Positions 26,183 through 63,960 are shown, counted from the first letter of the whole stretch. The stretch is 63,960 nucleotides of DNA, filler included, from Perkinsus olseni (GCA_013115125.1; 3 parts of 3 records of this genome joined end to end with filler, not necessarily neighbours in it); one strand, 5' to 3'. Translations and numbers: made by a program. The notes: a model not told the origin generated them from the letters alone.

Positions 26183-28443
26183 TTAAGGTCGTTCAATAGA
26201 TGGTTGGGGCGGCAGCCGCTTTGACATATCATCAACTTTCCCGTTATCAACTGCGTTGATAACTGTGTGTGATAATGTTGTATTCTTTGTCTTATGATGT
26301 TGTGGTGCCCTATAAGCTACTGCAGGCAATTGGGTTGGTATATCATTCTTCTGTAGCTGACCATCAGCAGCCTTAGATTTGTCTATCATTGTTGAAGGTT
26401 CGTCATCATTATGTAATAGAAGATTGGATACATCTGAAGGGAATAATCGAACTATGAATATCAACAGCATTATTACAATCTTTTGGAAGAACTTCGTCGT
26501 TCCGGTCTAATGCATCATCAACAGTTGCTGCTGCAGTAGTTGTCTCACGGAATATCTCGTCGTCGAGGCCCTTGGGTACTTGCCGTTGAATTCCGTGCTG
26601 TTGACGATGTTCGCTCTTCTCGTTATCATTGATAATCCCAAACCGAGCCGTTTGCTGTAGTACCTCATCATATTTATGAAAGTCCCTGATAATATTATTG
26701 AAGGCATGGATTAGGAGTAGTAAGTCATGAATAGTACCCAGTGGTGGAGGGGGTCCCTTCAAGTGCAATCATATCGTTCTTGTGTGCTGCAGCGGTATTA
26801 TCATTATGGTGGAATGCGTTTGTATGTGCGAGTGCTTCGTGATGATGATGATACTCATCTGCAAACAGCCAACGTCAGTGCCCCGTCCGCGCGACTCTCT
26901 TATTCTCACTCCTTTCCCCATTCCCCTGCATCTTAACATCTTGTCCTTGGGATACAACATAGTAACCTAGTAGATGTCCTACACAAGCGTATGCTGACAT
27001 TAATACCATCTTCTCCCCTTCTCCTATTATCCAATTGTTCTGCCACATGATGGTTGGCTTCATCAAGAGCTCTCTGCCACTGCCTCACTCTATTAATGCT
27101 ATTACCCCCCTGGGCATGATACTGTTGCACACTCTAACAGTAGATAGTGATGCATATGAATCACCAGCCCTATCGGTAGTATTACATGATTCACTTTATC
27201 TCTTTTTCTGAGCATCCTCTCAACAGCGTTAGTAACTTGTTGTAGGGCGTCTTTATGACCTCCTAGTTCACGATAAAGATCAGCTAATGAAACGTATCTA
27301 TTGAGCATAGTAGTTCGTACACCAGCAATGACCACCTCCTCTTACCCTGATGAGATTGTTTTATTATTATCGACACGAACTGGTGGCCCCCCTTGCTGAT
27401 TTGCACGTTGCGGAGCTCTCCCTCTACTATTGTTAGGATGCTGAGGACGCCTTGAATGCTGTTGATGATGGGTATGATGCCCAGGTGTATGGTGATAATC
27501 TTGTAGCATTGTTGATTGTCTGTACTGATGACGTTAATTCTCATTAAAGCAGACTAGACTTACCCTCGTGTCACCACTTCATCATCTTCATCATTTTCAG
27601 TATTCTCGTCCCTCTCATCTCCTATTACATGATCATTAATATTCATATCCGGTGATTCTACTTCGACTGTCGTATTAACCTTCCTTAACGAGTGTATACG
27701 CTCGTAGTGGTGGTAATGATTCAACTGATTCTTATTATTGTTACTGTCGTTGTTATTCTCCTGTCTAACCAATAATAGAGTAGCTTCACGTTGTAAGTAC
27801 TCCAAGCCTCGTCTATGACGTGCTAATGCCTGTTACACAACAACAACCACCACCACCATGATCGCCGTCATCAACAATACCGCTATCATTACCTTAGCCA
27901 ATCTAAGATCTCTTCCCTTAGCCTCCCGTATTAATGTGACAATGAGTTCATGTCTTAAATTACGATTAGACATCATCACATTATTCCCGGCCACGATAGT
28001 GATAGCTTCCGTATGACGATTGTCCAAGTCCAGTATGTGCAACCTATGGTCTTCTAAAGCCTGATTGTGATCATCATGAGGCCTTCCTTCATAATACATA
28101 ATGTTCACCCTCTCCAATGCTGTCTGCCATTCAGTGGCACTCCTCAAGAGGTTATTCATCTCACGACGGCATTCCCTTGTTGGTAGTTTACGTCGAGTTA
28201 ATCGATCAACTAAATCATGATGTGACTTCAGTACCTTTCATGAGAATAACAATAACAAGACGCTCGACGATGCTCCGCTATTATCACCCTTCCCATTTCT
28301 AACTCCCTTCTTTTGGCGTTCATCATGGCTTTATTGAACTGTTCCTCGTCAACATTCCTTGCTGATACTCTTCCACGTCTGAGGTCTGCGTAAAACCGCC
28401 CTCTCCATGTTCCCCATCAGACTACCTCATTTTGGCACTCATC
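26183..28443 (-). CDS. Hypothetical multi-exon helical protein
   Basis: Spliceable minus-strand exons (e.g. MNNLLRSATEWQTALERV..., YVSLADLYRELGGHKDALQQ); no family recognised. Confidence 0.45.
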
Positions 28444-28989
28444 CTTTCTGGTGATTCGCTGTCACTGTATCGAGATGTCACTCGAGCAGCATGATACGAT
28501 CCACCTATCGTTCAGCTACACGCAGGGGTCATCGGATGAGTATTACCGGGATGAGGGGTATGACGACTCCTTCCTCCTGTTGGTATCCACTGTGATGATG
28601 ATGTTATATCATGATCATCCTCTGGAGTGGGATATGAGACAATCATCATTATCACACTAATGTTAAGGTAGTAGTAGCCCTCATCATGACAACACTACCC
28701 GGACAAACATACTAGAAGCAGCATCATCACCATCATCAATAACAATTACTTAATATGACCACCATAATATTAACACACATGAGATGATAATAAGAACATC
28801 ACACTTAGTAGAATAGAGTGCACGGTTCACCTTCCGGCTGGAACCTCAGTTCAGTGGTCTTGGTAGCATCAGCAATAACCCCATACGTAATACCACTAGA
28901 TGACGATAATGATGATGAGTAGCAGTAGTAGGAGCGTGATGATGATAGTGTTGTTGTTGGTGGTCGTGGTGGTGGGGTTGTTGTTGTTA

Positions 28990-29775
28990 TCAATTCTGAT
29001 ACTTCAATAATAATGGGTATATGCTACGGAAAGCATTACTTATATCATCTCTATTTTTAGCACCAGTAAATACAATCTTTCCTGATACAAATATTAACAA
29101 AGCAACTTTAGGTTCGAATAAACGGAATACCAGACCAGGATATATTTCCGGTTCATAACTACAATAGGAACGATGTTCATAAGCTAAAGCTTCCAAACGT
29201 ATTGGGAATCTCACATCCGCTGATGCGACCATATTCTCAATTTTAAATTTCCTAAATCTTGCACCAGGGTAACCACTTTTTATTACAATTTTCGCAACCT
29301 TCTTCGCCGCATCTTTTGCTGTTATTTCAGAATTACTACCAGTGACCATAACCTTACCAGTGCCATATAACATAGCAGTTGCTTTTGGTTCTCTGAATCT
29401 TATCACCACTGCATTAACTTTCCGAGGATTATATTCAGCATTACGTGCTTTGAATGCTACTTTCTTCAAATCAATAAGACCACCACCATCATCATCGCCG
29501 CTATGTCGTCCATTGATACCCAATTCAACTGATGCTATAACATTCTCTAATACTGGATATACCGATTCTGGTATGATACCATCTTCCCCATCATCATTAG
29601 TAGTAGTCATGATAATGTTGTTATCATCACTACCATTTGGACTTGTTGTGGTACTTGTAACTGTTTCATCATAACAACCATCTCGCTGTGCTGATGCTAA
29701 CACATTATTATCCGATCCATCAACATTACCTGAGGATGATCGACGATTGAGAAAGAAGTAGATGATCATCGACAT
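28990..29775 (-). CDS. TBP: TBP-like factor, copy 1
   Basis: LENVIASV..IDLKKVAFKARNAEYNP..IRFREPKATA..GKVMVTG; KIENMVASADVRFPIRLEALA..SYEPE.YPGLVFR..PKVALLIFVSGKIVFTGAK. Confidence 0.95.
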   Translation of the reverse strand: MSMIIYFFLNRRSSSGNVDGSDNNVLASAQRDGCYDETVTSTTTSPNGSDDNNIIMTTTNDDGEDGIIPESVYPVLENVIASVELGINGRHSGDDDGGGLIDLKKVAFKARNAEYNPRKVNAVVIRFREPKATAMLYGTGKVMVTGSNSEITAKDAAKKVAKIVIKSGYPGARFRKFKIENMVASADVRFPIRLEALAYEHRSYCSYEPEIYPGLVFRLFEPKVALLIFVSGKIVFTGAKNRDDISNAFRSIYPLLLKYQN

Positions 29776-29825
29776 GAGGACCAGCAGCCCCCACAGCGTT
29801 GCATGCCACTAATACTTCAGTGAGT

Positions 29826-31206
29826 TATGTACAGTATATCGGATATCTTAGAGTAGCCTAAAGGCCTACTACAATACCGGGAATGACGACACCAGACCGC
29901 TAACTCGAACATTTGGACACATAGCGATGTTGATGGGACTTCGTACGGAGCACACCACAAACGGCAGAACTTCGGTTATGGCGAGGGAGAAAGGATAGCT
30001 GTATACTCTTCATGGGGATTGCTCAGCCAACTCCTCCTCCGCCTCCCCATTCGATCTGCCTTGAGTGGGTGGTGACGGTTGAGACGTTAAACTAGGATGA
30101 ACATTGAGGCGGCTGAGGTCTCTCTAAGCCAACCACTGACCGCTAGGACCCTGGGTAGTGTTCATGATGCTGTCGGAGGAGATGCAATCATGTTCTTCCA
30201 TAACTCCAATACACTACTGCGCTAGGTCCACAAAGAATCTCGAGGCAGCAGCAGCAGCAGCCTGACTCACTGGTACCACCGAGCTCATCAATAGTAATCA
30301 TAGGATTCATAAGGATGGTGATTATAAAGAAAGAAAGAAATACCATGGGCAATAGTCTATACGATCAGTTGATGATGCCAGGGTGCTGCTGCTGCTGGTA
30401 ATAGTAGTAGTAGTATCATACATTCTCAGGAAGTGCCCACGGGGCCCCTCACTACCATCATGACGATAATAATGACAACATATACAACACGATGTTGGTA
30501 ATCGAACAGCTCGATGAGCATCTATCATTACCTTCGGTAGCAGTAGAGCCTCTTCTGAGAGTCGGTACTGAGCGTATTGCTGTAGATAATGCATCCCCAA
30601 CATCACCTGAATGGAGATCCTATAGATCATACTGATGATGATGATGATGATGCTGGTGGTAGTGTTATGAGTAATACCTCCTCCACCACCTTCCGATCCG
30701 AGCAGGTCCAATAGGAACTCATCAGTGGTGGCCGTAGTAGAAGGAGATGATGGTATGTCTATCATAGTAATATTCAAGACGATATTACTATCATTCTGGA
30801 CGGATTTGGTAAAAAAGTGGTATGATGATGTACTCATCCATCCCTACCCGAAGGATTACCAATCATGATGAGAGAATGGTATCACTGGCAGATTTATCAC
30901 AACCAAACAGCATCTACTTTCAGATATCGTTGCTGTTATGCTAGCAGCAGCAGTGATAGCAGAAGAAGGGAGTAACGGTGACGTGATGAAGGACGACGTA
31001 ATGGTAATACCTGTTGTTGTTGTTGATGCCGCTTAAGGATAGCAGTATTGTTGTTGGTGTTATCTACTATTTAGTTACAATAATGTAACGTATGGTACTA
31101 GATACGGTAGAATACATAATACTACCACTCCAATAATAGACAACAACAAGAAGAAGAAGCGAAGGAAGAGTAGGAAGGGTAAGGGAAGTATTGATGAATG
31201 TGAGCA
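29826..31206 (-). CDS. Hypothetical multi-exon protein with hydrophobic N-terminus, between TBP copies
   Basis: ORF 30322-30837 plus spliceable exons; probable stop after ATLRYPIYCT. Confidence 0.3.
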
Positions 31207-31394
31207 TTTTGTGATAATGGTGATAATAACAATACTACAGGTAGTATGGAATACAATAGTTATACCAATCCGGCTGGTAGACGTTACATGACTCTATAAT
31301 CTTCGTACCATCCCATACGTAATACCAGTACATGACGATAATGATGATGAGTAGCAGTAGTAGGAGAGTGATGATAGTAGTGTTGTTGTTGTTA

Positions 31395-32291
31395 TCAATT
31401 CTGATACTTCAATAATAATGGGTATATGCTACGGAAAGCATTACTTATATCATCTCTATTTTTAGCACCAGTAAATACAATCTTTCCTGATACAAATATT
31501 AACAAAGCAACTTTAGGTTCGAATAAACGGAATACCAGACCAGGATATATTTCCGGTTCATAACTACAATAGGAACGATGTTCATAAGCTAAAGCTTCCA
31601 AACGTATTGGGAATCTCACATCCGCTGATGCGACCATATTCTCAATTTTAAATTTCCTAAATCTTGCACCAGGGTAACCACTTTTTATTACAACTTTCGC
31701 AACCTTCTTCGCCGCATCTTTTGCTGTTATTTCAGAATTACTACCAGTGACCATAACCTTACCAGTGCCATATAACATAGCAGTTGCTTTTGGTTCTCTG
31801 AATCTTATTACTACTGCATTAACTTTCCGAGGATTATATTCAGCATTACGTGCTTTGAATGCTACTTTCTTCAAATCAATAAGACCACCACCATCATCAT
31901 CATCGCCGCTATGTCGTCCATTGATACCCAATTCAACTGATGCTATAACATTCTCTAATACTGGATATACCGATTCTGGTATTATACCATCTTCCCCATC
32001 ATCATTAGTAGTAGTCATGATAATGTTATCATCACTACCATTTGGACTTGTTGTTGTACTTGTAACTGTTTCATCATAACAACCATCTCGCTGTGCTGAT
32101 AACACATTATTATCCGATCCATCAACATTACCTGAGGATGAATGATAAGCTACCCCCTGAAAGACAGCAGGTTGTTGTTGTTAACCCTTACCGGATGGTA
32201 TCATCTGCCGTCCTCCCCCTCCTTCTTCTTGTTGTTGCTTCTGGTCGTCATGACCAACCAGCAGGGAGTCGATATCAAAATCTGCCAGCAT
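31395..32291 (-). CDS. TBP: TBP-like factor, copy 2 (near-identical core to copy 1; one 5' intron)
   Basis: Same core as copy 1. First exon MLADFDIDSLLVGHDDQ...MIPS splices in frame (gtaagg...tttcag) to GVAYHSSSGNVDG. Confidence 0.95.
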
Positions 32292-32405
32292 ATAAGGGAG
32301 ATAACAACAACTATTAGAGAATGGCATACAGTGGTCGTGGTGGTGGCAACGCAAGAGTAGGGATGATATCCACAGATCAACACTATAGTGTGGTGGCGGT
32401 GATGG

Positions 32406-33236
32406 TCAATGTTTGTATTGTGTTAATAATGGATATATACTGCAGAATGCTTTGGTAATATCTTCTAATGTCCTGGCACCAACAAAAGATATCTTACCAG
32501 ATACATATATCATAATAACCATCTTAGGGTCGAAGAGTCGGAATGTTAACCCAGGGGATAACTCAGGCTCGTATGTAGCATACGCACTATGATCATAGGC
32601 TAACCTTTCCAAACGTATTGGGAATCTTACATCAACTGATGCTATCATATTCTCAACTTTAAAGTTATTCAACTTCATACTAGGATTATGTGTAATCTTC
32701 CTAAGGAGCTTGACTACTTTTTTACCAGCCTTCTTCGCTAATTCAATAGTATATGCACCATTAATCATAACCTTGCCATTACGATAAATGTGGCAAGTGG
32801 CCTTAGTAGGGTTAGTAAATCTGATTACCGCACAATTCTGTTTACGAGGGTTATACTCACAATTACGGAGTTTAAAAGCAATGTCTTTGATATCAATAAT
32901 ATCATCAGCATCATCATTTATGCAGAGCTCGAAGGATGCGATAACATTGTCCAATACTGGATTCATACCATCAGGTATCATATTATTGGCAACATCATCA
33001 ATATCATTAGTAGCAACATAACCATTATTATGCTTAACCATAACTCCATCCTCTCTAGACAGAGCATGCTGCTGATGCTGGTCTTCTTCTTCTCCTTGTT
33101 GTTGTTGATCGTCAGTTGTTGCTAGTAATGCATCGTCGATTGATGTGAGGTTATTGCGGTTATCACCACCACCACCACCACCACCTTCAAAAAAATAGTC
33201 CGGAGTGAGAATGCTAGATGGACCAGACATACTCAT
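32406..33236 (-). CDS. TBP: TBP-like factor, copy 3 (divergent paralogue), intronless
   Basis: LDNVIASF..IDIKDIAFKLRNCEYNP..GKVMING; KVENMIASVDVRFPIRLERLA..YEPELSPGLTFRLFDPK..VSGKISFVGAR. Confidence 0.93.
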   Translation of the reverse strand: MSMSGPSSILTPDYFFEGGGGGGGDNRNNLTSIDDALLATTDDQQQQGEEEDQHQQHALSREDGVMVKHNNGYVATNDIDDVANNMIPDGMNPVLDNVIASFELCINDDADDIIDIKDIAFKLRNCEYNPRKQNCAVIRFTNPTKATCHIYRNGKVMINGAYTIELAKKAGKKVVKLLRKITHNPSMKLNNFKVENMIASVDVRFPIRLERLAYDHSAYATYEPELSPGLTFRLFDPKMVIMIYVSGKISFVGARTLEDITKAFCSIYPLLTQYKH

Positions 33237-33404
33237 AATGCCAGACGCAATCATCAAACAATCTATGATAGGGAGTAGACAGCAGAATAGTTGCGCCCAT
33301 ATCGATTGGAATGGCGTGCGCTAGTCGTATTTATGACAGGGGGCCTTGTGTGGTGGGGGAGTTTAGTAGAGCTTACGTTCCTTGTAGTAGTTATTGTTGT
33401 GATT

Positions 33405-35301
33405 ATGTCTGGTGTTATTGGTATTGATTTGGGTACTGCTGATTCTATTGTTGCATCAGTTGGGCGAGGTGTGGTAGACATTGTACGGAATGAGGTGTCA
33501 GAAAGGAAGACTCCCTGTGTGGTTGGATTTACTGATAAGAACAGATTAATTGGTACTAATAAGCATGCTGCTAGTGATGATCAGGGGACTCTTGTCATCA
33601 TCATCAGGCGAAGCTGCTATGACGTCCATAAAATCAAATTATAAGAATACGTGCCGTAACCCTAAACAACTATTGGGAAGATCATCGCCTGATGATGAGG
33701 AGCTCAAGAAGGAGAAGTTCTTCCAGATATGTGATAATGCTATTGCTGATGATGGTAACAACAATAACAACAGTAGGAGTACTTGGTAATGCTTGTTAAT
33801 AAGCAGGTACTGCTGGTTATCGTGTATCCTATCTTGGTGAGGAGAGGGTATTGTCAGCTACTGTCGTTACATCTATGTTATTATCTAAGTTGAAAGATAC
33901 TGCTGATGCATTTACCTCATCCAATAGTAAAGATGTTGTTATCGCTGTACCATCATACTTCCAAGATACCCATCGCCATGCTGTACTGGACGCTGCTCGT
34001 ATTGCTGGCCTCAACTGTTTGAGGGTTATGAATGATTCCACGGCTACTGCACTAGCATACGGTATTTATCGTTCTAACGAGTTCGGTGATGATATTACTA
34101 AACCAACTATAGTAGCATTCACTTCCGTTGGTGCGTCACACTTCGGTTGCTCCGTCGTCAAGTTCACTAAGAGCCATCTTACTGTACTTGGTGAGGCTAT
34201 TGATACCACTGTTGGTGGTCGATATATTGATCAATTGTTGATGGAACATTATAGTCAAGAGTTTACTAAGAAGACAGGTTTGGACCCTCTGAAGAATGCA
34301 AAAGCTAGATTTAAGCTCGAGGAGGCTGTGAACAAGGTGAAGAAGATCTTATCTGCCAACAATGAGGCGGTATTGGGGATTGAATGCTTGATGGGAGATG
34401 AAGATCTTGTAGGTCCTTATCATCATCATCATCATCATTTACGAGTGCTATTCATTAGTATTCTTTTTCTTGTTGTTTTCAGAATGCTGTTGTAACTCGT
34501 GATAAGTTGGAGGAGTTATGTACCCCAATGATTGGTAAGATGCAATCAGTAATGGACCGAGCATTGAAGGAGGCCAATGTTACTGCTGATGATCTACATT
34601 CTGTTGAGATCATTGGTGGTGTATCTCGCGTGCCATTCATACAACGTACCATTGTTGATACCCTCCACAAGGGTCTATCCCGAACCCTTAATGCTGATGA
34701 ATGCGTTGCTCGTGGTTGTGCACTGCAAGCCGCTATGTTGTCACCGTTATTCAAGGTTAGGTAATATACAACACTCCCACCAAACCGCTTCACTCATCAT
34801 TCCTCTTTTCAGGGACTTTGCTGTCACTGATTTCTCCCAGCAAGGTGTTGAGGTTGCATGGAAGGCAGCAGCAGCAACTAGTACCGGTGATGATAGTGAA
34901 CAACAACACGAACGAGCTGATGATGATACTGCTGATGGTTCTGCATCTATTAAAAGGACAGAAGTTTTCCAACCACGGTCGACGCTGAATATGGTTAAGA
35001 TGCTCACCTTCTATCGCAAGGATGCCTTCGATCTATGGGCCCAGTATCCTAACTCGAAGGACGCGTCGCTCGGAAGATTCACTGTGCAAGTCCCTCATAG
35101 TGATGGTGCTCCCAAGAAGATTAAAGTTAGAGCTAAGCTCAGTCTACATGGTACGTTCAGTATAGAGAATGCCACTATGATTGAGGAAGAGGAATATCAA
35201 GTTGTTGAGAAGGAACGTCGACCTAAAGACAAGCAACAACAACAACAACAACAACAACAACAACCTGCTGCTGGTGCTGGTGCTGGTGCTGGTGCTGCTG
35301 G

Positions 35302-45723: not shown

Positions 45724-46209
45724 CTACATTTGTGAGGTACCCCGCATAGAGCGAGGCCTCCTTACCACCCAGTCGCTCTGCTTAACGTCAGCCGGCTTCC
45801 CACTGGCAGGTCTGCGAGGAAGGTCATCAGGGTTTAGGACGTTCACAGCTTCGAGAACCCGGTCATCAAAGTCCGCTTTAGCCTGACCTGTGCTAGCTGC
45901 GATGCTTTCATCTTGGTCAGAGGGCAGTCCTTCCTCAGCTGGAGGACTTGGCTCACTGCTCTCCTGAACTCTGCCTCCGCCGGTCACGGCGGAAGACGAG
46001 GAACTCGGAGTAGACTTCTTTCCGAAATACAGGGCGATGCTTGGGTACGATGAGCTCTTTCTTTGGCGCTTAGCCGGCCGAGAGCCTTCAGAAGTACTCA
46101 TAGGGATACTCAGAGGCTCCTTGTAAGCGTAAACCAGCCAGGTAGTTAAGGCCAAGATAACGAGAGTAAAGGCGAGGGTTTCGAAGGACGCTGCGATTTC
46201 GAACAACAA
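45724..46209 (-). CDS. Orphan ORF (hydrophobic N-terminus, basic NLS-like RPAKRQRK, low-complexity), possibly mobile-element derived
   Basis: 161-codon intronless ORF at the contig edge, downstream of the palindrome cluster. Confidence 0.35.
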   Translation of the reverse strand: MLFEIAASFETLAFTLVILALTTWLVYAYKEPLSIPMSTSEGSRPAKRQRKSSSYPSIALYFGKKSTPSSSSSAVTGGGRVQESSEPSPPAEEGLPSDQDESIAASTGQAKADFDDRVLEAVNVLNPDDLPRRPASGKPADVKQSDWVVRRPRSMRGTSQM

Positions 46210-46267
46210 AATTAACTAGGCAAACCAGGCGCTACAGGCAACCGGTAAAAGGCTTCGGATCGACGCC

Positions 46268-46629
46268 GCCCCGTAGTACGGGGCCCGTATGATACGGGCC
46301 TTATCACACAGCTGCATGCTTTCTCAACGACGAGTCAGTGCGGCCCTCGTGCATGCGTGCACCGCTGTACACGCGTGCTACGACCATTTTAGTGTGCGCG
46401 TTAGCGCATGTCGCGCCTCACCGTGAGGCACTCACGGGTCTCGAGAATTATGAGTCATGATTCATGACTTGCAAAAATTCGTCGATGGCTTCGGAATTTC
46501 CGAATCGGAGAAAACCACGACCCCCCGGGGAAAACTAAGACCCCCCAGACTCTCAGGTGCTAGAAACATCTTTAGGGGGTGGGGGGGACCATCACTTATG
46601 GTCTTAAGCTCTCAGGGGGCCCCCCTGAG
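46268..46629. repeat. Cluster of six perfect 7-9 bp inverted repeats, each with a 1-nt spacer
   Basis: gccccgta-g-tacggggc 46268-46284; ggcccgtat-g-atacgggcc 46282-46300; gcctcac-c-gtgaggc 46415-46429; agtcatga-t-tcatgact 46453-46469; ttcggaa-t-ttccgaa 46490-46504; ctcaggggg-c-ccccctgag 46611-46629. Confidence 0.9.
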
Positions 46630-48135
46630 TGGATTGAGTCAACCGTATATCATGTCAATGAGTTCGTCCACAAAGTCTGAGATATCGAATCACCGCCCTT
46701 ACGTGGATCCATTCGACCGTGGCTTCGGGTTTGCGTGGATTGAGAGGCATTGGGGTGAGAAACGAGACTGGAAACTTATCTCACGTTAATCAGCGGACTC
46801 GGAAACCCCTAGACAAGATCAATTCGAAGGAAAAAAAATTTCAGTGTTCCACGGCCCTTGTGACGTGATGAGCTCTTTTGGCGGTCACGCCTTGGAGAGC
46901 ACGAACGGAAATGCCACTTTTGCCATGTTCATTCCTCACGATATTGACAATAAGCTCACAAAGTTTCAGTCTTGTACGGTCGGTCGTTGAGAAATTTCAA
47001 GAGTTCAAAGTTGTTCACGAAGTTTTGAAACTCCCTTTACCCAGAGTAACATGACCCTCATTTCACTCGCACAGCGCGGCCTCTCGTGTGGGTAGCAAGA
47101 GTCACTTCTGAACCGAGGGTACGAGCATTGTGGGGGATGTCTCACCCGAGACCCACTCAATGGCTCTGCTAAATGGCCATCGTGTTGCACGCGTTGAGCA
47201 GCTCAATTGGAGCTGTTGGAGTGCCCTACTCCTGAGGAAGAGGGTACCTTTGTTAGAATCCACTGGGGTGTAATGAGGCTGGCGACTATGAGATACTGGG
47301 CTGCGTTCTCTCACCCGCGTCATCCGTCCTACGGCCTAGTGCGAATGGAGACGTTTTACTCGAGCTCTGCGAGTTCGCTCGCCCTCTGATAGAAGCGCCC
47401 TTGGGCCTATTTCAAAAGTCTCCTTAAAGAGGACTTCTTAAAGTTCTTAAGCATGAAACGGCTGGATTTTTTTTTAATCCGAGTTTAAAAGGCCACCTTA
47501 ATTACCTAAAGAAGGCTTACTTTATCCATCTGCTTCCTACGGGCTAAGAAGCACTCCTTTAAGAATGCTTCATGAGGCAAAAATCACCCGATAAACCCGT
47601 CAAGAAGCTCAAGAAGCTTCAACTTGTTCAGTTGGACAGCACAGAGCAAGGAGACGCTGCCCAAGATGATCTCTGAACGGTGTTGCGGTTGTGGTCGGAT
47701 TGATCTCCTTGGATGAGCCTCTACTGTAGTTCGGGTATCAATGCCTCCTGCCGGATTGCCGCAGCCCGCGCGACTATCCTAATTTGAGATTACTAGTGCA
47801 GAAGTACGTAGTGAGCACCTGAAAGAGTGAAAAGCAGTCGTATCGTGAAAGAGCGCCTGGCGAAGGTCCTGGGTTGCGTCGGGGGCTGTCCCCCGTTGGA
47901 GCCTTCTTGGAAGTTCGGCTCCTTTGTGTCAACCCTGTCCCACTGGGTAGGCCTGGAGGGCGCGTATCCTTCCGCTGAAGTTGAGAAGGCTGATGATAAG
48001 CTAGAACCGTATTCCGGCGCGCTAGCTACGAGGTCGTTGCTGGAGGATGCTGGTCACTTCTCTCCAAAGAGTGGTCGTCTACAACATGTTTTCGTATCAA
48101 CAGTCTGTTCGCTTCACTCCATTATCGACATCGCT

Positions 48136-49011
48136 ATGGTAGCTGCTTCTACAGCCAGTTCTTCGACCTCTGAGGAGAGTGACCCCACCTTGGCCCATCG
48201 CGTTCTCTGCGTCCATGGCCATGCTCAGAGTCCCGAGGGCTTCCGTCAAAAGACGGGAGGCATCAGAAGGCAGTGTAAAAGACTGGTCCATTTTGAGTAA
48301 GTCCATCATTATGGCCGAACCTTCGGGCAATCATGGTTGCTGCTGTTCCTTCAGCTTCATCCAAGGACCCTTCGAAGTGCCACCTGATGACGTTTTCGCC
48401 AAGCACGACCCTGATAGCGAGAAAACCTACACCTGGGTCGACCCCGCAAAGGAGAGTCCAGTAATAATATGACAGTGTGTAACACAGATTGTTTTATTGT
48501 TCTTGCTGCAGGAGAACTTGGGGGAATTTTATGTAGAAAGCATCGCTAAGGCCATGACCCCGGAGACACAGGGTTTGTTTGGCTTTTCTATTGGTTGCCC
48601 CGCCATCCTTCTCGCTATGGCTCGGTATCCCAAGGCATTCGAAAATGTGAGTTATCGTTCAGTTCGCTTGAAGGGGATAACCTCGGCCATTTTCAGGTTA
48701 AGTTTATCATTCTGTGCGGTGCATTCTTCCCACAGAACAATTCTGAGCAGGAGGCCGAGATACGTGCCTGCCCTCTTTGGCCCAAGGTAGTAGTAGGCTT
48801 CCAGCTCCTATTCCAATCACTGTGTCTTGCCTAGGTTCGAGCCATGTTCATTTGCGGCAAATCGGACCAAGTAGTCGCCGAAGACCGGAGTCTCAGCGTT
48901 GCCAAGATGTTCACTGATCCAGTTATATTCGAGCACCCCAAGGGCCACATGGTCCCCGCTGAGGCCCGGAAGGACGTGAAAGCGTTCGTTCAGAGTGCTC
49001 TTTCTGAGTAA
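48136..49011 (+). CDS. FSH1/OVCA2-family serine hydrolase, paralogue 1
   Basis: RVLCVHGHAQSPEGFRQKTGGIR, GLFGFSIG, GKSDQVV, EHPKGHMVP. Confidence 0.88.
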
Positions 49012-49190
49012 CCGGCTGATACATTGGTCTTAAGTTTCTGTTACTAAAAGTAACTGTACAGTGGAAATCACAGTGGTGATGATGGTGTTAAGTTGATAGT
49101 GACTTCATCACGCATTCACCCCTCGCTACGGTCTCTAGGCTGCCGTCGCTGGCTCAATCGCCTCTCCTCTCTGATCTGTTGAATTCGGCA

Positions 49191-50065
49191 ATGTCTTCTA
49201 AGTCTACAGGGTCCGCCAGCTCATCATCTTCAGAGGTAGGGGAGCACACTAACAGGCTGTTGTGTGTTCATGGCCATGCCCAAACTCCCGAGCGGTTCAG
49301 CAACAAGATCGGACCGATAAGGCGGAAATGCAAGTCTCTGGTCCAATTCGAGTACTAAGGGTTGGCTCTGGTGGGTTCGGGTCAAAACTTTTGACTCAAA
49401 AGCCTTCTTCTCGTTTTTATTTCGCTGTCCTCACAGTTTCGTGAAGGGCCCCTATGTGGTGCCGCTAGAGGACAGATTTTCCCACGACTCGGACGACGAA
49501 GATTTGCTCACTTGGCGCCAGCCCGGCATCCCTCGGGGTCAAGACAAAGTCGGTGTGACTAACCCCCGCGGTCGCCTCATCCACTCCGTCTCAGATGGAC
49601 GTCTCTTCGATAATCGAAGGCATCACTCCTGACACCAAGGGTGTCTTCGCCTTCTCTCTCGGCTGTGCGGCCGTCCTTGTAGCGATGGCTGAGCACCCCG
49701 AGGCCTTCGCTAATGTAATTCATCGCTTCTCGGGCCCAGGGAAACAGTTAACTTGACGCTCAGGTCAAGTTCCTTATCTGCGCCAGTGGTAATTTACCGC
49801 AGAACCCAACACTGGTTGAAGAGATAGAGAAATCCCCCCTAGTCAAGACTGTAGTACTCCTGCTCCCTCCCTCACCGAAACAGCGATCTCTCAGATACCG
49901 GTTATGCTCATCTACGGCAAGAAGGACCAGGTAGTCCCCGAGGAGCGTTTCAATACCTTCAAAGGCGTGTTCCCTGATCCACTCATTTTCTATCACGACG
50001 GCGGCCATGTAGTGCCCGGCTCTTCCCGTCAACAAGTTCGCGAATTTATGGAGAAGTACATCTGA
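49191..50065 (+). CDS. FSH1/OVCA2-family serine hydrolase, paralogue 2
   Basis: RLLCVHGHAQTPERF, GVFAFSLG, YGKKDQVV, HDGGHVVP; same intron layout as paralogue 1. Confidence 0.88.
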
Positions 50066-50188
50066 GCCCTCCCGACTCGCTGCGGCGGTCTACGGAATTT
50101 CTGTTCCTTGCACCCCTTGGGTTTTGCGTTGTCCCTCTCCCCGGTCGGTGCCGGCTAGAATGCTGTTCTCGAAGGCTGTTACTTTCTG

Positions 50189-51443
50189 ATGCGTCGGAGT
50201 CGGCTGCATCCGAGACTACTGCTGGTAGCCTTTGCCCTGGCTTACGGAGGGCCGCGGCTGATGTGGAGCCTGGGTGACGCTGTGAAGAACGTCCCGAGTC
50301 TGCTCATCCTACCAATAGTGTGGCCCATGGCCTCCTTCAGCGCTACAGTCAGGGCCTGCCCTGTCATGTCGGGCCTTCTTATGGCCGCTCTGGGCTTCTA
50401 CTGGCTCCAGTGGTTGGTGGGCATCGTTAAACCCCGAGCAGCTTCTGTTAAGGGTGGGCAAAATTCATTGGCATTATAAATCTTATTTCTCCTTCTGATC
50501 AGATGAGTTGACCTTCCAACCAACTCCGCTCTTCCGACGCTTCCAAGTCTGGCGGCTCATCACGTATCCTCTGGTCCATCCCGACTTCGCCAGCCTCATG
50601 GTCTGCACCATCCATCTACTCTTCAGCCTAGATCTCGAGTCCACTCCCGATATCGATCTCCCTGGCGGTGCCAATCTGCGATGCGGTACAGCCCCTATCT
50701 CTGCTGGGTTCTGCTACCCGCTTTGTGGTATCGGTTCGAAGCACCTGGCTGCCCTTGTTGTACTAGCAACGGCTACGTCAGTCGTCGTTGGGTCTTGTGG
50801 TCGTCTAAGAGACAACTGGAATATCGTCTTCGGTGGTCTCTCTACTGTATGCTATGCAGTCGACGGTGCAATAATAACCCTCTATGTTTTGTTCGCCGGA
50901 GCTGGAGTGACGCTGCCACCCGACCCCTCGTTCGTCTCCGTCAGGCTGTTCATAGCCGCGCTGCAACTATGCATGGATCTAGTCACCTCTGAACCTCGGA
51001 AGTCTTTTCTCGACTTCGGCTCCCTGGCCCACTCTTCGGCCTTTCTTTGCGGTGTGGCCTATGTGACCGCAGTAACCCCTATGTTGGGATCCAGCGGTCA
51101 CTCATGGCCAGAGCGACTCTTCCGGCCTGCCCTCGCAGTGTATCCACGGTATGTCGTACCATGCCAGGGCAGCTCGTCGAGGTGCCTCAACATCCTGCAC
51201 CCGAGTCTTCAAGTGTCTTTGCACACCGTGCGCGTCTTCTGGTTGTTGCTGAGCATCGCTGCTGTCATGCTCGTGACCTTCGCAATCTCACGGAATGTGC
51301 CAGGGAGGCCTCAACGTCTACCAGTGGTTTCAGAATTAGACCGGCTGATGGGAAGCTACTCGACTGAAGGTAGACGTGCCGCTCAATCGAAGCGTCCCAC
51401 TATGGACGAGCAGCCGACAGGGGGTTTGGGAGATATCTTTTGA
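50189..51443 (+). CDS. Rhomboid-like intramembrane protease family protein
   Basis: FQVWRLITYPLVH, GGLSTVCYA, GSLAHSSAFLCG, multiple TM helices; one intron near 50454-50502. Confidence 0.7.
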
Positions 51444-51728
51444 ACGTAGAATTCTTCTGTACCATTTGTTTCGATGATCTTGCTGATTGTATTGCGTTAA
51501 GATAGTGCAGTAGAGGTTGGAGAAGCCGCGGATTGAACGATTCGATATCGAGGACATCCAACTCACAAACCCGACACGCTGTTGCTGTTGACGGAACGTA
51601 CTCGGCCGAGTCGGCGTACCAACAAAAACTCGCCCAATGAGGGTGTCCGATTCCGTACTTGAAACAAATCTCTCTGTCAATAACTGTTTAAATAATTTTG
51701 CATGATTAATCTGTGCCGCAATCGCCTC

Positions 51729-52844
51729 TCATTCCCTTCCGACTATCTGTGGAGCAACTCCACTGCTCACAACTGGGACTTCCACTGCTTCAGGGGGCTG
51801 ACGAGTTTTCTTCCAACCGAAGATCTTCTCTAGGAGTAATAAGCAAGTTGAGATGACAATCATGACGGCACCCACAATGCTGAGGGCATAAACTGGCGAG
51901 GGCGTGGCTATATGCTGCCATACAAAAGCAAAGGCGACGTCGAGTTGTCGAAGCATGGCGCAATTCTGAGGCTTCTCGATTTGCATTGCCTTGTTATAGA
52001 GGAACTGGGTGCCCACACCGAACATGCCAGCCACAATACCGAGCTGGTAGGCCCGTAATGCAGATGAGAGCGGCGGCAGGTGGAACGAATTAGCATTCGA
52101 GATCGCCATCACAACGCTCATGATGGTACCAGTAGCTCCCCAGTAGAAGACCATCACGTAGTGGTGAACAGCGCTCCCGACATAGCGGACCACGATGGGG
52201 ACGAAACCTCCAACTACCGCACCTAGTAGAGTGGCAAAGACGGCCGAGACAGTCGTCTCCTTCCCGCCTTCCGAAGTCACGGATGAACCGAACAGGAAAC
52301 TCGGCCTGGCGATGAAAACAACGCCAGCGAAGCCGAGGAAGAGGGAGCAGATCTCCAGCCTTGTCGAGGGTTCGCGCAAGAGGCAGACTGCATAGACCAT
52401 TGTGAAAAGGGGGTTGGTGAAGAATATGGCGTTGGCATCGGCCACGGGCATCCCACCGATGGCGTAGTAGAGGAGGAAGTTGGAAAATGCGCCGAGGAAG
52501 CCTCGGAAGAGACACACTAAGCGTATGCCGTGAGGGCCTAGTGGATTCACCCCCGCGCAGTAGCAGGCTGCCAGGCACGCCACTAGCTGTATTAGAGATC
52601 GTACGAGCATCAGTTGGGCACTGGAGAAGGTATCGCTCGCTAGGTGTGCACAGACTTGCATCAGGGAAAAGAAGAGGGCGGAGATGACGCACAGGCCACT
52701 GCCCAGAAGAGAGGTGGGACCGAGTATGGCCCTAGGGGGAGGCTGAGCAGCATCGAGGTTGCCGGTAGGTCGGGAGACAACGACCAGCTCTACTTCATCC
52801 GACCGAGGGAACGAGGATGGCGAGGAGGAACGAGGGACGGCCAT
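51729..52844 (-). CDS. EamA/DMT (SLC35G-like) transporter, intronless
   Basis: About 10 TM helices; LFRGFLG, MPVADANAIFFTNPLFT, LLREP, GVVFIARPSFLFG, AMQIEK. Confidence 0.9.
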   Translation of the reverse strand: MAVPRSSSPSSFPRSDEVELVVVSRPTGNLDAAQPPPRAILGPTSLLGSGLCVISALFFSLMQVCAHLASDTFSSAQLMLVRSLIQLVACLAACYCAGVNPLGPHGIRLVCLFRGFLGAFSNFLLYYAIGGMPVADANAIFFTNPLFTMVYAVCLLREPSTRLEICSLFLGFAGVVFIARPSFLFGSSVTSEGGKETTVSAVFATLLGAVVGGFVPIVVRYVGSAVHHYVMVFYWGATGTIMSVVMAISNANSFHLPPLSSALRAYQLGIVAGMFGVGTQFLYNKAMQIEKPQNCAMLRQLDVAFAFVWQHIATPSPVYALSIVGAVMIVISTCLLLLEKIFGWKKTRQPPEAVEVPVVSSGVAPQIVGRE

Positions 52845-53246
52845 AGACTATTCAAAACTTCACTACGGTGCTCAGGGTACTATGGCGAATGCATCAATTG
52901 CTGTGGACTGCCACCTTCCCTTTAAACGATTCTGATTCCCTTTGCTTTCTCCTTGCGCACAACAAACTCTCAGCGAAGTGAGAGACCATAGGGATGAGGC
53001 TATTCAACGTCGGAGTATCCGATATGGCCCTCGAAAGGGAATTGCCACCAGAATTCGGGCATGGCAATGCAGCGAGGAGATCTATGAGATGACCACTTCT
53101 CCCTTGAAGAGGTTCTTCAACGACCACCCCAAGGGAAAAGTACACCAGCCAGATATTCTAGCGATAGTTGCTAGCATATTTGGCTGCTGACGAGTACGAT
53201 TGGATGAACTCTCTCGACACAACAACGATGTTAGAGAAAAAAGGCA

Positions 53247-54089
53247 TCATAGCTCAGTGGTAAGGCTTAGGGATCGACTACGTACATTCGCAATAGCTGA
53301 TAAAAAATTGATCGGGCCTGGGACTGCGGAGGCTTCGACAATCACTGCTTGAACAAAAGACCGCCGAGCTTCAAAGGGGCTAGCACTAGCATCAATAGAG
53401 TCACGGTGAGGACGTAGGAGAACAGCAGGACGAAGACGACGAGGAGGAGTCGAGAGCATAGCCCGGAGGGGAGAACCTGGGGAAGAACATAGCCAGAATT
53501 ACGAAGAGACAGGCTCACGAGTCTAGTCCCGCTGATGTGCTCATCCAGATACCCTTGCAAGTTGTAGAAGAGAAGATCGACGTGGGAGTCGCCCTCGACA
53601 GGGTAGGTGACGGGGTCGGAGGCAGGCCCCCAGACCAGGCCCTGCTAGTGGAACGCTGTCCACCCCGGCCAGGAAGATGAGCCCTGGACTTACCGAAGCA
53701 GCGGAGATTATGGGGGAGGTGATGTTGCGGGCGGTTGTTATGAACCGCGTTGAAGCAACTGAGCCGAACATTCTGCCAAAGGCGTCGTCTAGATTGATCT
53801 CAGTGAGCCTTCTGCCACCGCCACTAGCAGATTCGCACACTGAGACAACGGACAGATGGCCGCCAGTCTTCTGCCGCCGAGCTTCGTGCTCACTTTCCAC
53901 TCTTCTTTCCAGATCCTCCATGCTCCTCTGGAGCTCGGCTAGAGTGATGATCTTCTGATTCAGTTCGCTGTGAACACCGCCGAGATTCTCCGCGTGTGTT
54001 TGGGACATTGCCTGAGCCAATCTTAACCCGTACTGACGGCCTCGGAAGGCCCAGTCGTTCCAGAGCTCTCGCTTATCATACCTCGACAT
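53247..54089 (-). CDS. Hypothetical coiled-coil/membrane protein
   Basis: ORF 53541-54089 (coiled coil) with downstream hydrophobic exons. Confidence 0.4.
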
Positions 54090-54393
54090 GACTGCTTAGG
54101 TGAGCTACTTGGGCTTCAAGCGCTTCATTCTGACGACCAAAACGAAGGGTTTCACGACACAAGGCTTGCCCTCTGCGCAGTCACCTTCTCTTTGCACTGG
54201 GCTAGCTCAGTGGGCTTCGCAACTAACACCTCTGCCATCCCCTGTGTCGTGCAAAGAGAAAGGAGAATGCTCAGCAGGAATAGCACAAGGGCAGCGCTTG
54301 GTGATGGCACCATTGCTCAGGAAGGAAGGCAAGCACTTTCGGTAAGCACGCTCAGCCCTGCATTGCAGCGCAACACAGCCCCTTCAGGAAACG

Positions 54394-54984
54394 TCACGCT
54401 CTGCCGACATCAACGAATTCCGTTATCGAGTGTCCACCAATACCCCTCCAACTGAGGTAGGCGTTCCAACCCACGTCCACCACGCAGTCCCAGGTTGGGC
54501 GGGCAGCCGGGAAGATCCTCTGGACCACTGTGAAGTTGAAGGTATCAGAGACAGGCCACACAAACCATGAGGCTAGGTAGGCCTCCGCCCACTTCTTCTC
54601 TGCGGTATCCCACCCTCGACGGGCGGAGTCCCTCACGCCTTCTCCCAGTAGGAGGCGATGGAACATCGTGGAGAGAAACAGGAAAGATGGTACAGAAATC
54701 GGCATGTAGATGAACTGCATTGCGAGGAGCTTCCGTCCGACCACCCGGAAAGTCGGCTTGGTCCCAATGCGCCTGTCTAGCGCCTCATAGAAGAGCGTCA
54801 AGGGGAGACCGTTGAACAGCGGTCCGCACGCCGAAACAGCTGCCACTCTCTTCTTGTCAACTTTCTCGCATTTCTCGGCCTTCTGTGCGAACCAGTCACT
54901 GAGGGCGAAGAAGAAGAGGGAGGAGATTGAATTCGCTAATACTGGCGATTGCCGGTATGTTCGAGCCACGGCGGCCGCCACCAT
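54394..54984 (-). CDS. Mpv17/PMP22 family membrane protein, paralogue 1
   Basis: SPVLANSISS..ALSDWFAQ, DKKRV, YLASWFVWP...FNFTVV, VGWNAYLSW. Confidence 0.9.
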   Translation of the reverse strand: MVAAAVARTYRQSPVLANSISSLFFFALSDWFAQKAEKCEKVDKKRVAAVSACGPLFNGLPLTLFYEALDRRIGTKPTFRVVGRKLLAMQFIYMPISVPSFLFLSTMFHRLLLGEGVRDSARRGWDTAEKKWAEAYLASWFVWPVSDTFNFTVVQRIFPAARPTWDCVVDVGWNAYLSWRGIGGHSITEFVDVGRA

Positions 54985-55257
54985 AGAGTAAGAAGGAAAA
55001 ACTGCGAAAGGTACAACTCGGGTTACTGGACTCCACTCCCGCTGAAGCCAACTTAGTGTTGTTGTTGTTGTTGTTGCGTCACGACGCCTACAGAGGCGTG
55101 CAAATTCGTATGAGAAGATATGGAAAAAGAAGTTCTCGGAGGTCGATCAGAACTTTGAGATTGAACGCGATAGATCTTTGGCATGCACAGCGCAGTTTCT
55201 ACCAACACCTCTCCCAATTTTGTCAAGAAACTCTCATGCACTTCTCAGAGGATCTTT

Positions 55258-55878
55258 TCATACATCATCCATGCGAGCTGGGCATGAAAATTCGGTTACA
55301 GAATGGCCGCCGATTCCACGCCAACTTAGGTAGGCATTCCAGCCGACCATCACAATGGCATCCCATGTTGGTCGCGCCGCTGGCATGCGCCTCTGCATGA
55401 CCGTAAAGTTGAAGGCGTCAGAGATGGGCCACACGAACCACGACGTCCAGTAGGCCTCCTTCCAGCGCTGATTCGTGACGGCCGAGGCTTCCGTGCACGC
55501 AATGGTAAATCCCTCGCCGTCGAAGAGAGCGTTGAAAGTCGAGGAAAGGAATATGAAGGCCGGCACGGAAAACGGCATATAGACGATCTGCATGAAGAGT
55601 ATCTTCCGTGAGGCAACCCTGAAGGTATGGCCAGAGCCCAGAAATCGATCAAGATTCCTGTATAGTTTGGTCAGACAGATACCACTGAGAATCGGGCCGC
55701 AAAGGGCAACGGAGAGAAGCCGACGCTTGTCGATATCGTTCCCATGACTTCCTTTAATATCGGTATCGTCAGCCCGCTGCGCTATTAGATCACTGAGCGC
55801 GTAGCAGGCGAGAGACGTCACGGAGTTAGCAAGCACGGGGGAACTGGTGAAGACGCCTTTGAGACGAAGAAACACCAT
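55258..55878 (-). CDS. Mpv17/PMP22 family membrane protein, paralogue 2
   Basis: SPVLANSVTS..ALSDLIAQ, DKRRL, YWTSWFVWP...FNFTVM, VGWNAYLSW. Confidence 0.9.
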   Translation of the reverse strand: MVFLRLKGVFTSSPVLANSVTSLACYALSDLIAQRADDTDIKGSHGNDIDKRRLLSVALCGPILSGICLTKLYRNLDRFLGSGHTFRVASRKILFMQIVYMPFSVPAFIFLSSTFNALFDGEGFTIACTEASAVTNQRWKEAYWTSWFVWPISDAFNFTVMQRRMPAARPTWDAIVMVGWNAYLSWRGIGGHSVTEFSCPARMDDV

Positions 55879-55999
55879 GGTAATGTGAAAACAACTGACT
55901 GCTCTCAACTCCTATCCACTACCCCAATCGGTCGGGATTCATAGTTAGCAGCAAATGCGGGTGGACTCAACACATAGCAGCGAAGAAACTGTTCTTGAA

Positions 56000-58428: not shown

Positions 58429-58689
58429 AGGCTTTCGACAGCAGACAAACTGTTCTGGTAAACACATGCCTGACCGGTACTCTCGGAAGTTGATACCGGA
58501 ATTTTTACTGGGCGCGCGCGAAATCCGCGCAGAATTCCGGTTTACTTTTTCCATCCGCAATGGAGCTCCATTCGGTAGAATGGGGTTCAAATCTGAGTCT
58601 GTTGAACAGCCCCTCACCTCTGTAGAGCATTTCAAATAAGAGGACCCTGCGAGGAATGTTGTTATTGATAGTTGGCCTGTCTAGTTATC

Positions 58690-59518
58690 ATGGGAAAGAA
58701 GGCTGGCGGGAAGGGGAAGAAGGGGAACGCGGCAGCGGCACCTGCTGAAGTTGAACCGCCCAAGTGAGAACACGAGTATTTTCGATGACGGGCAAGGGGC
58801 TTTAAATTCATCGTGGTTAGATCTCTATATTTTAGAGGGGGGGGGGTTGCTGTTCCGTATGGTATCTTGGGTCAGGTTTTCGCACCCCGACATCAAGCCA
58901 TCACGACTGGACCCCCGCGTTGTTCATGCAACGATCAAGCTAGCCGCGCCAGTCTGCACCCTCCTAGAGTTCACTACTACACTAGCTCCAGTAAGGACAC
59001 ACATACACACCTTTCTTGATGGCCCTTTCCAGTCCACCAAGATCTCGCATATAATAGATTTGATAATACGAAGGCACGGCGGCAGCATACGTGAGCTTTC
59101 CGTGTGCATCAATAGGTCAGTGAACGGCGGAGGGCAGGGCTAAGGCCGTTCCGAGATATACAGTAGAATGAGCCTGTTACTTGGCTTCGATCCGGGGAGC
59201 GCCTAAGGTGTGCACAAGTCCGTCACTGGCTTGGGCTTGCTTGAGAAGAATCTTTTCACTCAAGAATCTTCTCAGAAGATACTAGGGCAACCTAAGATTC
59301 CCGATGGTTCTTCGTTATGCTATTATTATGACTCTCCTCTAGATTCCATCCGGAAGAGATTGTCAGACCTGATGAGACGTTAGAGGTGAGTGGGCGCGCT
59401 ATGATGAGCAGCAGCAAGGTGGATGCTCAGCGTCTTGTCTCAGGATTGCGGAGTGATCGGAGGGGAGTGTGTCGTCTACTACGACTTCGTACCGCTAACA
59501 GGGGCGTTGCTCCAATGA
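58690..59518 (+). CDS. Small hypothetical protein (Lys/Gly-rich N-terminus, possible ubiquitin-like fold)
   Basis: MGKKAGGKGKKG...STKISHIIDLIIRRHGGSIRELSVC...FHPEEIVRPDETLEDCGVIGGECVVYYDFVP assembled through GT-AG introns. Confidence 0.55.
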
Positions 59519-62961: not shown

Positions 62962-63155
62962 TGAGTAGTACTTGTCTTTATGCTTCCCATGGTCCCTGCT
63001 GCTGTCATTATAGTATTGTCTCAACAACAAGGATTTCAGTTGGGCCTGTGGAACTGAGCTCGGCTTCTAGAGGGTTTGTTGTCGGCGTGGTCCTCCTATC
63101 CCGCTCGAGGTCGTGTCGTTCCTCAGCGGCTCATTCAGAATACTTCTAATTGTTG

Positions 63156-63892: not shown

Positions 63893-63959
<67 letters not shown>

Positions 63960-63960
63960 G
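63893..63960. repeat. (GTT)n microsatellite at window end
   Basis: Direct reading. Confidence 0.95.

Follow-up and report, generated by a model that had tools for sequence, protein, structure and literature searches.

The TBP gene trio of Perkinsus olseni: two core types and the residues at the four intercalating phenylalanine positions

By what steps might a TATA-binding protein (TBP) give up its four intercalating phenylalanines, and what would such a protein then read? The question is raised by a locus of the shellfish parasite Perkinsus olseni (GCA_013115125.1) at which three TBP genes stand side by side. We analysed it within a stretch of 63,960 nt, filler included, which we call the window and from whose first letter all positions are counted. 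An initial annotation had described the trio as three factors with graded loss of the four Phe, and had compared them with the TBP-like factor (TLF) of dinoflagellates; as Perkinsus belongs to the dinoflagellates' sister lineage, the comparison is apt. Its further proposal, that the paralogues serve different promoters, polymerases or spliced-leader (SL) RNA genes, is purely conjectural. Since the genes are already annotated and already stand in a published tree, the gain here is one of interpretation, not discovery. What is new, as read from alignments and a tree, is a nested series of Phe replacements together with a Phe-less paralogue that seems peculiar to Perkinsus.

The trio and its four phenylalanine positions

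The three genes lie head to tail, all on the minus strand, their TBP-domain open reading frames (ORFs) spanning 28990-29775 (copy 1), 31395-32105 (copy 2) and 32406-33257 (copy 3) in an ORF scan; in all three copies the start of the gene differs from that of the ORF. Each protein contains the two tandem repeats of the TBP family, PF00352 matching in two stretches with E values of 1e-51, 2.1e-51 and 4.4e-41 for copies 1, 2 and 3 (curated cut-off, 22.9 bits), and copies 1 and 3 each match 35 distinct solved TBP sequences. The tandem trio is thus confirmed by ORFs, domain matches and structure alignments alike. No fourth TBP place was found when the whole window was searched by tblastn with copy 2, copy 3 and yeast TBP.

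What stands at the four intercalating positions (F99, F116, F190 and F207 of yeast TBP, here positions 1 to 4)? HMMER aligns copy 1 with the E. cuniculi TBP 4wzs_D (E 4.2e-59), and the NPKRF, ALIF, PELFPG and LLIFVSG of the solved protein are matched by NPRKV, AMLY, PEIYPG and LLIFVSG. For copy 3, aligned with Arabidopsis TBP1 (6njq_B, E 5.4e-43), the same four stretches read NPRKQ, CHIY, PELSPG and IMIYVSG. The residues are V,Y,Y,F in copies 1 and 2 and Q,Y,S,Y in copy 3, just as the initial annotation had stated, and its assignment of the four positions holds when checked against these solved TBPs. A core profile alignment of 285 rows, comprising 282 collected TBP-family proteins and the three window copies, gives the same patterns for all three copies. 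In that alignment FFFF occurs 206 times and VYFF 36 times; VYYF is found in copies 1 and 2 and two P. marinus relatives, QYSY in four P. olseni copy 3 rows, and HYSY in two P. marinus rows.

None of the three copies, then, carries the four intercalating Phe of a canonical TBP, and copy 3 alone has all four replaced, as a TLF would, copies 1 and 2 retaining F207. To speak of Phe loss is right for copy 3, in which no Phe is left; in copies 1 and 2 the change is mostly from Phe to Tyr. Copies 1 and 2 still have an aromatic residue, Tyr or Phe, at all but one of the four positions, and copy 3 has one at two of them. Nor are there three graded factors. Copies 1 and 2 are identical in 175 of 176 core match columns and their second exons share 99% of nucleotides, which leaves only two core types at the locus.

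How far does the remodelling extend beyond the four Phe? For this we used 14 positions that we take to be the minor-groove contacts in yeast TBP-TATA structures (N69, V71, F99, L114, F116, V122, T124, N159, V161, F190, L205, F207, V213 and T215), with the yeast numbering anchored on F99/F116/F190/F207. Copy 3 is non-canonical at 12 of the 14 in both P. olseni and P. marinus, and at 10 of these the two species have the identical new residue. The P. olseni residues at the 12 changed contacts are, in list order, I, Q, H, Y, M, N, I, S, M, Y, S and V; P. marinus has H for Q and I for the final V. In copies 1 and 2 six of the 14 are changed, all conservatively (I, V, M, Y, M and Y), and for comparison five are changed in Plasmodium and four in Amoebophrya. 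Copies 1 and 2 also retain N69/N159, a near-canonical second repeat and the YEPE stirrup, which is the part that contacts TFIIB. Copy 3 too retains the YEPE stirrup, along with N69, N159, R105, K120, R196 and K211. An Atlas model, of the P. marinus copy 3 orthologue only, has template modelling (TM) scores of 0.70/0.75 to a TBP cluster and 0.66/0.90 to a TBPL1 cluster; the Atlas searched with this orthologue yielded generic TBP clusters only.

Does copy 3 bind double-stranded promoter DNA at all? It might instead be a decoy that titrates TFIIB- or TFIIA-type partners, or a binder of single strands. The 12 changed contacts include polar residues at F99 (Q/H), L114 (H), T124 (N), F190 (S) and V213 (S), and the YEPE stirrup is kept. 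There is also a precedent, in that the accessible text of a 2025 report describes Giardia TBP as lacking key Phe and preferring single-stranded DNA (PMC12209930). Yet N69, N159 and the four basic residues persist in copy 3, and the changed contacts are themselves conserved between the two species. That conservation suggests a binding surface that is maintained, not abandoned, and we think a decoy or single-strand role unlikely.

The two species agree in more than the contacts. The P. marinus ATCC 50983 proteins XP_002782409, XP_002782410 and XP_002782411, annotated as putative TATA-binding proteins, have consecutive accessions on one 675,648-bp contig; the first has a copy 1-type first exon, the second a copy 2-type first exon, and the third a copy 3-type core. 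Here too there are two V,Y,Y,F proteins with identical cores and different first exons, plus one H,Y,S,Y protein. Core identity between the species is 94.9% for copy 2 and 87.5% (154/176) for copy 3. The copy 3 N-terminal region is less conserved, with 47 of 82 residues identical (57%) and many gaps. The copy 3 frame is uninterrupted in the window, in P. marinus and in P0121, P0122 and P0131, all three of them models from P. olseni. Overall, copy 3 is 74% identical to XP_002782411 and, over 87% of the query, 100% identical to P. olseni KAF4654816; copy 1 shares 81% of its residues with XP_002782410 and 92% with a partial P. olseni protein. The P. marinus trio is named in the Fig. 4 legend of the phylogeny of Roy and Morse 2013, in the portion of that article available to us (PMC5029490), which says nothing of the Phe residues of these proteins. 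A full-text search, whose reach ended short of the figure and supplement of PMC5029490, found no paper on the Phe status of the Perkinsus TBPs.

Phylogeny and the order of the substitutions

Did the replacements arise at this locus, or were some of them inherited? A tree of 54 rows by 176 columns was built with IQ-TREE under LG+C20 with posterior mean site frequencies (PMSF), 1000 ultrafast bootstraps and the approximate likelihood ratio test SH-aLRT. Its rows were chosen by hand from the 285: the Perkinsus rows minus three fused models, fragments and one duplicate copy 3, all named Amoebophrya and apicomplexan rows, eight uncultured VYFF proteins, odd patterns and outgroups. The proteins that lack Phe at position 1 fall into one clade, of 39 rows (support 98/98). 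Within it, a 12-row subclade (99/99) has named members that are all apicomplexan, with VFFF in Babesia microti and Cyclospora, IFFF in Plasmodium, VFSF in Selenidium and, in Theileria, a return to FFFF. A second subclade, with Y at position 2, holds 27 rows (92/91), among them Amoebophrya (strains A120 and A25, with AYFF, AYFF and SYFF), many uncultured proteins and Perkinsus. All seven Perkinsus rows, of both core types, fall in one group (97/98).

From the nesting of these clades it would follow that the V at position 1 dates back to the myzozoans and the Y at position 2 to the dinozoans, and that the Y at position 3 is specific to the Perkinsus copies 1 and 2. By this reading of the tree, the V at position 1 is inherited from a common ancestor with Apicomplexa and the Y at position 2 from a common ancestor with Syndiniales. 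Neither residue was invented at this locus, V or I at position 1 being found also in Apicomplexa and Y at position 2 also in Amoebophrya and 36 uncultured proteins. In copy 3, positions 1, 3 and 4 appear to have changed once a duplication had taken place within the Perkinsus lineage. The copy 3 stem measures 1.01 substitutions per column, the branches to the copy 1/copy 2 pairs 0.026-0.027, and copy 3 is truly divergent as a paralogue.

An alternative would make copy 3 and the TLF of dinoflagellates orthologues, TBP and TLF being a pair that predates the perkinsid-dinoflagellate split, and would give copy 3 the reported TTTT preference as well. Like copy 3, the TLF of Crypthecodinium cohnii lacks all four Phe, and two TLF clades exist in dinoflagellates, according to the accessible text of PMC5029490; moreover, the uncultured protein P0125 reads V,Y,S,Y and has PELSPG and IIYVSG in common with copy 3. 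The mixture-model tree, which held no TLF row, nevertheless places copy 3 with the Perkinsus copies 1 and 2 at 97/98 and leaves P0125 outside. Amoebophrya, itself a dinoflagellate, retains F at positions 3 and 4, and the review whose tree included the P. marinus trio terms TLF unique to dinoflagellates, at least in its accessible text (PMC5029490). Orthology of copy 3 with TLF is, in our judgement, quite unlikely.

In the sequence searches the best 120-150 matches were listed. A phmmer search of 1.84 billion representatives with copy 3 gave 4115 matches at E <= 0.001; among the matches listed, only the P. marinus orthologue (77%) and the copy 1/copy 2 type (52%) exceed 47% identity. No named core-dinoflagellate TLF was among the matches listed, the profile search having scored only the 8000 candidates that shared most words. 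No further Perkinsus TBP was among them either, a negative that covers the best 120-150 matches only and is no evidence of absence. The nearest relatives of the Perkinsus copies 1 and 2 are the uncultured V,Y,F,F TBPs (36 rows), at 52-69% identity, a set made up of P0006-P0031, P0041, P0046, P0047, P0081, P0132-P0136 and P0138; some lie on contigs of up to 285 kb.

Copies 1 and 2 raise a question of their own: how can two genes share nearly every core residue and differ in their first exons? Their homology takes in exon 2, the ~10 nt of intron just before it and ~100 nt of flank beyond the stop codon. Three indels fall in the coding part of exon 2, all of them in frame, the first exons are distinct, and ~1.6 kb of unique sequence separates the genes. 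The cores cluster by species (97/85), the two P. marinus cores being identical, and the first exons cluster by copy. Core clustering by species combined with first-exon clustering by copy argues for an old duplication whose exon 2 was homogenised by gene conversion, which we would consider the simplest reading.

Gene models and transcripts

Are the three genes expressed, and in what form? Contigs of four sequencing runs were compared with the locus: X4 and X16, on record as RNA and from two studies; X1, RNA by guess; and X19, whose kind is unknown. The best-documented gene is copy 2. Its exon 1 (32192..32312) has its ATG at 32291 and encodes MLADFDIDSLL..., in agreement with MLSDFDIDSLL at the N-terminus of P. 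marinus XP_002782410; a 60-nt GT..AG intron follows (32132..32191), and then exon 2 with the TBP core and stop codon (31395..32131; supported by the ORF, PF00352 and contigs), for a protein of 278 aa. The form in which the intron is skipped is found in contigs of all four runs, two of them on record as RNA.

Where does the copy 2 message begin? At 32312 an X4 contig ends in nine extra letters that, with the genomic AG and read on the minus strand, are the last 11 nt of the Perkinsus SL. The full Perkinsus spliced leader is 22 nt long (PMC9399869). The match implies that the copy 2 mRNA is trans-spliced 19 nt before the ATG, with the acceptor AG at 32312-32311 and a 5' untranslated region (UTR) of 19 nt; the SL remnant is seen in one of the four runs (X4). 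At the other end, X4 and X16 contigs cover 30918/30919-32127, and the 3' UTR extends to at least 30919. The ends at 30918/30919 were considered as a copy 2 poly(A) site and rejected, because X19 has a 45-nt indel or joint at this very spot, where an assembly graph would fork. The X19 contig in question skips 45 nt at 30878-30922; the ends of the skip read GT..AG on the plus strand, whereas the TBP genes are on the minus strand, and the skip may be a strain indel or an antisense intron.

Copy 3 is a single-exon gene of 276 aa (32406..33236, ATG at 33236), supported by PF00352, alignment to structures in the PDB and a gapless contig. This contig, from X1, runs without a gap over 32367-33221 and has 25 non-templated T (plus strand) before 32367, where the genome is not A/T-rich. 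These T mark a poly(A) tail 39 nt past the copy 3 stop codon, with a 39-nt 3' UTR at 32367..32405. Contigs of copy 3 are poly(A)-tailed in one of the four runs (X1), and two small ones occur in X4, which is on record as RNA. A copy 3 without transcription would have spoiled the initial annotation; a poly(A)-tailed contig covers it. The copy 2 SL acceptor follows 54 nt downstream of the poly(A) site, and one X19 contig passes from copy 3 through the spacer into spliced copy 2. Both this spacing and this contig are compatible with possible co-transcription of the cluster, though they are no proof of a single transcript.

Copy 1 is the least certain model. Its exon 2 (28990..29729), with the whole TBP core and the stop codon, begins after the acceptor catcctcag|G at 29729. 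Some 950 nt upstream of exon 2 an open frame ends in ...DEFLLDLLGSEGGGGG at a GT donor (GGAGGAG|gtattact at 30678), whose phase is identical to that of the copy 2 donor, and the motif DEFL(L/I)(D/N)LLGSEGGGGG found there stands also at the N-terminus of P. marinus XP_002782409 (P0127). On the strength of the motif and the phase-matched donor we propose a putative exon 1 at 30837-30678 on the minus strand (30678..30837), encoding ...TTDEFLLDLLGSEGGGGG, a peptide shared with XP_002782409, and a putative GT..AG intron of 948 nt (29730..30677). Judged from these sequence features, copy 1 probably has this upstream exon and intron; the two exons join in a single open frame, and the predicted whole protein has 299 aa. 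The spliced junction 30678|29729 was found in no contig of the four runs, and X1 and X19 contigs pass unspliced through parts of the putative intron. At the sites that distinguish copies 1 and 2 (29404, 29407 and 29575) the sole X1 contig has the copy 2 letters, and the bins of copy 1 exon 1 are without cover in X1. Contigs drop rare variants and collapse near-identical repeats, so the absence of copy 1 contigs says nothing either way.

One might argue from all this that the cluster is partly dead, copy 3 being a decaying, functionless duplicate and copy 1 or copy 2 an assembly artefact or a 5'-truncated dead copy. The very long copy 3 branch, the absence of any contig in the four runs with copy 1-specific letters or the spliced copy 1 junction, and the chimeric public P. 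olseni models at the locus could all be cited for it. Decay is hard to reconcile with a copy 3 frame that is open in four P. olseni models (P0121, P0122, P0131 and that of the window) and in P. marinus, with a core far better conserved than the N-terminus, and with the poly(A)-tailed contig. Similarly, an artefact would hardly leave copies 1 and 2 ~1.6 kb of unique sequence apart and differing by in-frame indels only, with both distinct first exons kept in P. marinus. We regard this explanation as highly improbable.

Several observations on the locus belong here. Both X1 and X19 have contigs in which 28957 is linked to 30245 through eight other letters, a joint that would delete copy 1 entirely; positions 30245-30263 are a CTG/CAG-type run that also draws unrelated contigs, and the joint may be spurious or represent a haplotype without copy 1. 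As to the chimeric models, P0121 and P0131 join the copy 3 core, cut after MIYVS, to copy 2 exon 1 (DFDIDSLLVGHDDQK...), and the 644-aa P0130 is the first half of a copy 1-type TBP fused to the downstream gene. At the start of all three paralogues stands a short motif of acidic, aromatic and hydrophobic residues, after which comes a run of glycines (30690-30740, 32255-32291 and 33165-33205, minus strand): DEFLLDLLGSEGGGGG in copy 1, DFDIDSLLVG...EEGGGG in copy 2 and PDYFFEGGGGGGG in copy 3. The uncultured VYFF relatives have EIEKFFLVDD at the same place. The N-terminal motif may be a conserved partner-binding or self-inhibiting module.

The surroundings are ordinary eukaryotic housekeeping genes, among them those for a type III glutamine synthetase, ribosomal protein S3, an Hsp70-family protein, TAP42 and a 2-hydroxyacid dehydrogenase. 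The Hsp70-family gene (33389-34000, plus strand) is divergent from copy 3, its contigs beginning ~150 nt from the copy 3 ATG, and has two short GT..AG introns (33552-33606 and 33754-33805) confirmed in all four runs. The gene downstream of copy 1, on the minus strand, has two short introns within 28379-28544, where X1 and X19 contigs skip 47 and 42 nt and the ends of the skips read CT..AC on the plus strand, and its product agrees with the C-terminal part of P0130. Further along, G+C rises from ~0.41 to 0.51-0.56 at ~46 kb and stays high through the window end (46000-63960); the ORFs in this segment are still eukaryotic-looking, and include an EamA transporter, two Mpv17/PMP22 proteins and a leucine-rich repeat protein.

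Roles of the two cores and comparison with known systems

What might the two cores do? The explanation that we favour is a conserved Perkinsus TBP cluster with a general copy 1/copy 2 core and a copy 3 that reads DNA differently. The duplication of copies 1 and 2 would be older than the split of P. olseni and P. marinus, and their shared core would most likely be the general TBP, equipped with two alternative N-terminal modules. It would still wedge DNA, by means of two aromatic residues in the second repeat and of a Val and a Tyr in the first. Copy 3 would have come from the same gene within the Perkinsus lineage, passed through one very fast phase and been conserved since. Retaining its partner-binding convex side, it could nucleate a TFIIB/Brf-type complex and might read DNA otherwise, through a non-TATA sequence or shape or possibly through single strands, and so serve a subset of genes. 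The descriptive part of this explanation taken alone we hold with high confidence. The functional role suggested for copy 3 is tentative, and could easily prove wrong. The explanation as a whole we consider somewhat probable.

Several points weigh against it. FastTree, run on 274 rows (rows with fewer than 150 filled columns and six fused models having been dropped), sets copy 3 within the Y-at-position-2 group, in a 45-row clade whose remaining 41 rows are its sister, one node deeper than in the IQ-TREE tree. We set this placement aside in favour of the mixture-model tree, and yet the long branch of copy 3 makes any placement of it delicate; with core-dinoflagellate TLF rows absent from the tree, there is a possibility that copy 3 is a TLF orthologue, or that it was drawn to copies 1 and 2. 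The 14 contacts, as said, are our own assumption. All runs are assembled contigs, from which neither expression levels nor single transcripts can be read, and the copy 3 evidence in X1 and X19 comes from runs that are RNA only by guess or of unknown kind. The DNA specificity, the division of labour and the co-transcription of the trio are what the sequences lead us to infer, and were the genome to contain an FFFF TBP at some other place, the role of general factor would have to be assigned anew.

A bolder proposal is a two-factor system peculiar to Perkinsus, in which a Tyr-rich general TBP encoded by two genes that differ in their N-terminal exons works beside a Phe-less copy 3 whose DNA face has been rebuilt and which is devoted to a gene class of its own, such as SL RNA or stage-specific genes, the trio being one transcription unit whose members are separated by poly(A) addition and SL trans-splicing at a distance of only 54 nt. 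We find this doubtful. If true, it would make Perkinsus a culturable model for the stepwise evolution of TATA-independent initiation of the dinoflagellate type. Because Perkinsus grows in culture, the DNA specificity and genomic targets of both core types could be compared directly, and such a comparison would bear on promoter recognition in dinoflagellates and their relatives.

How does the trio compare with systems already known? TBP-related factors without the Phe set have arisen in particular lineages, as TRF2/TBPL1 in metazoans and TRF4 in trypanosomatids, and trypanosomes, too, use spliced-leader trans-splicing. These factors and Giardia TBP resemble copy 3 in having a TBP fold with a remodelled concave face and no reliance on Phe intercalation. 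As copy 3 nests within the Perkinsus TBPs, its origin would be independent of all of them. Specifically, copy 3 does not behave as an orthologue of metazoan TBPL1, a statement that derives from the nesting alone (98/98 and 97/98) in a tree with no TBPL1 row. Closer at hand are the apicomplexan and Syndiniales TBPs, which share a clade with Perkinsus. Apicomplexa have V or I at position 1, Amoebophrya has A or S at position 1 and Y at position 2, and both groups retain F at positions 3 and 4, except for the VFSF of Selenidium; none has Q/H,Y,S,Y.

The dinoflagellate TLF, reportedly described from C. cohnii by Guillebault et al. 2002, is the nearest parallel, being like copy 3 a TBP homologue without the four Phe, and from the sister lineage. 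It differs from copies 1 and 2, which retain one Phe and two Tyr, and it differs from copy 3 in that the latter appears, in a tree without TLF rows, to be of within-Perkinsus origin. The C. cohnii protein lacks the four TATA-contacting Phe and prefers TTTT, according to the accessible parts of two sources (PMC5029490, PMC11453091). TBP paralogues free of the Phe wedge are thus known in animals, trypanosomes, Giardia and dinoflagellates, and the route by which they came to be so is poorly documented. The Perkinsus cluster would offer an ordered series, with position 1 altered in an ancestor that Apicomplexa and Dinozoa share, position 2 in one shared by Perkinsus and Syndiniales, position 3 in Perkinsus and, as the last step, everything in a single fast-evolving Perkinsus paralogue, copy 3.

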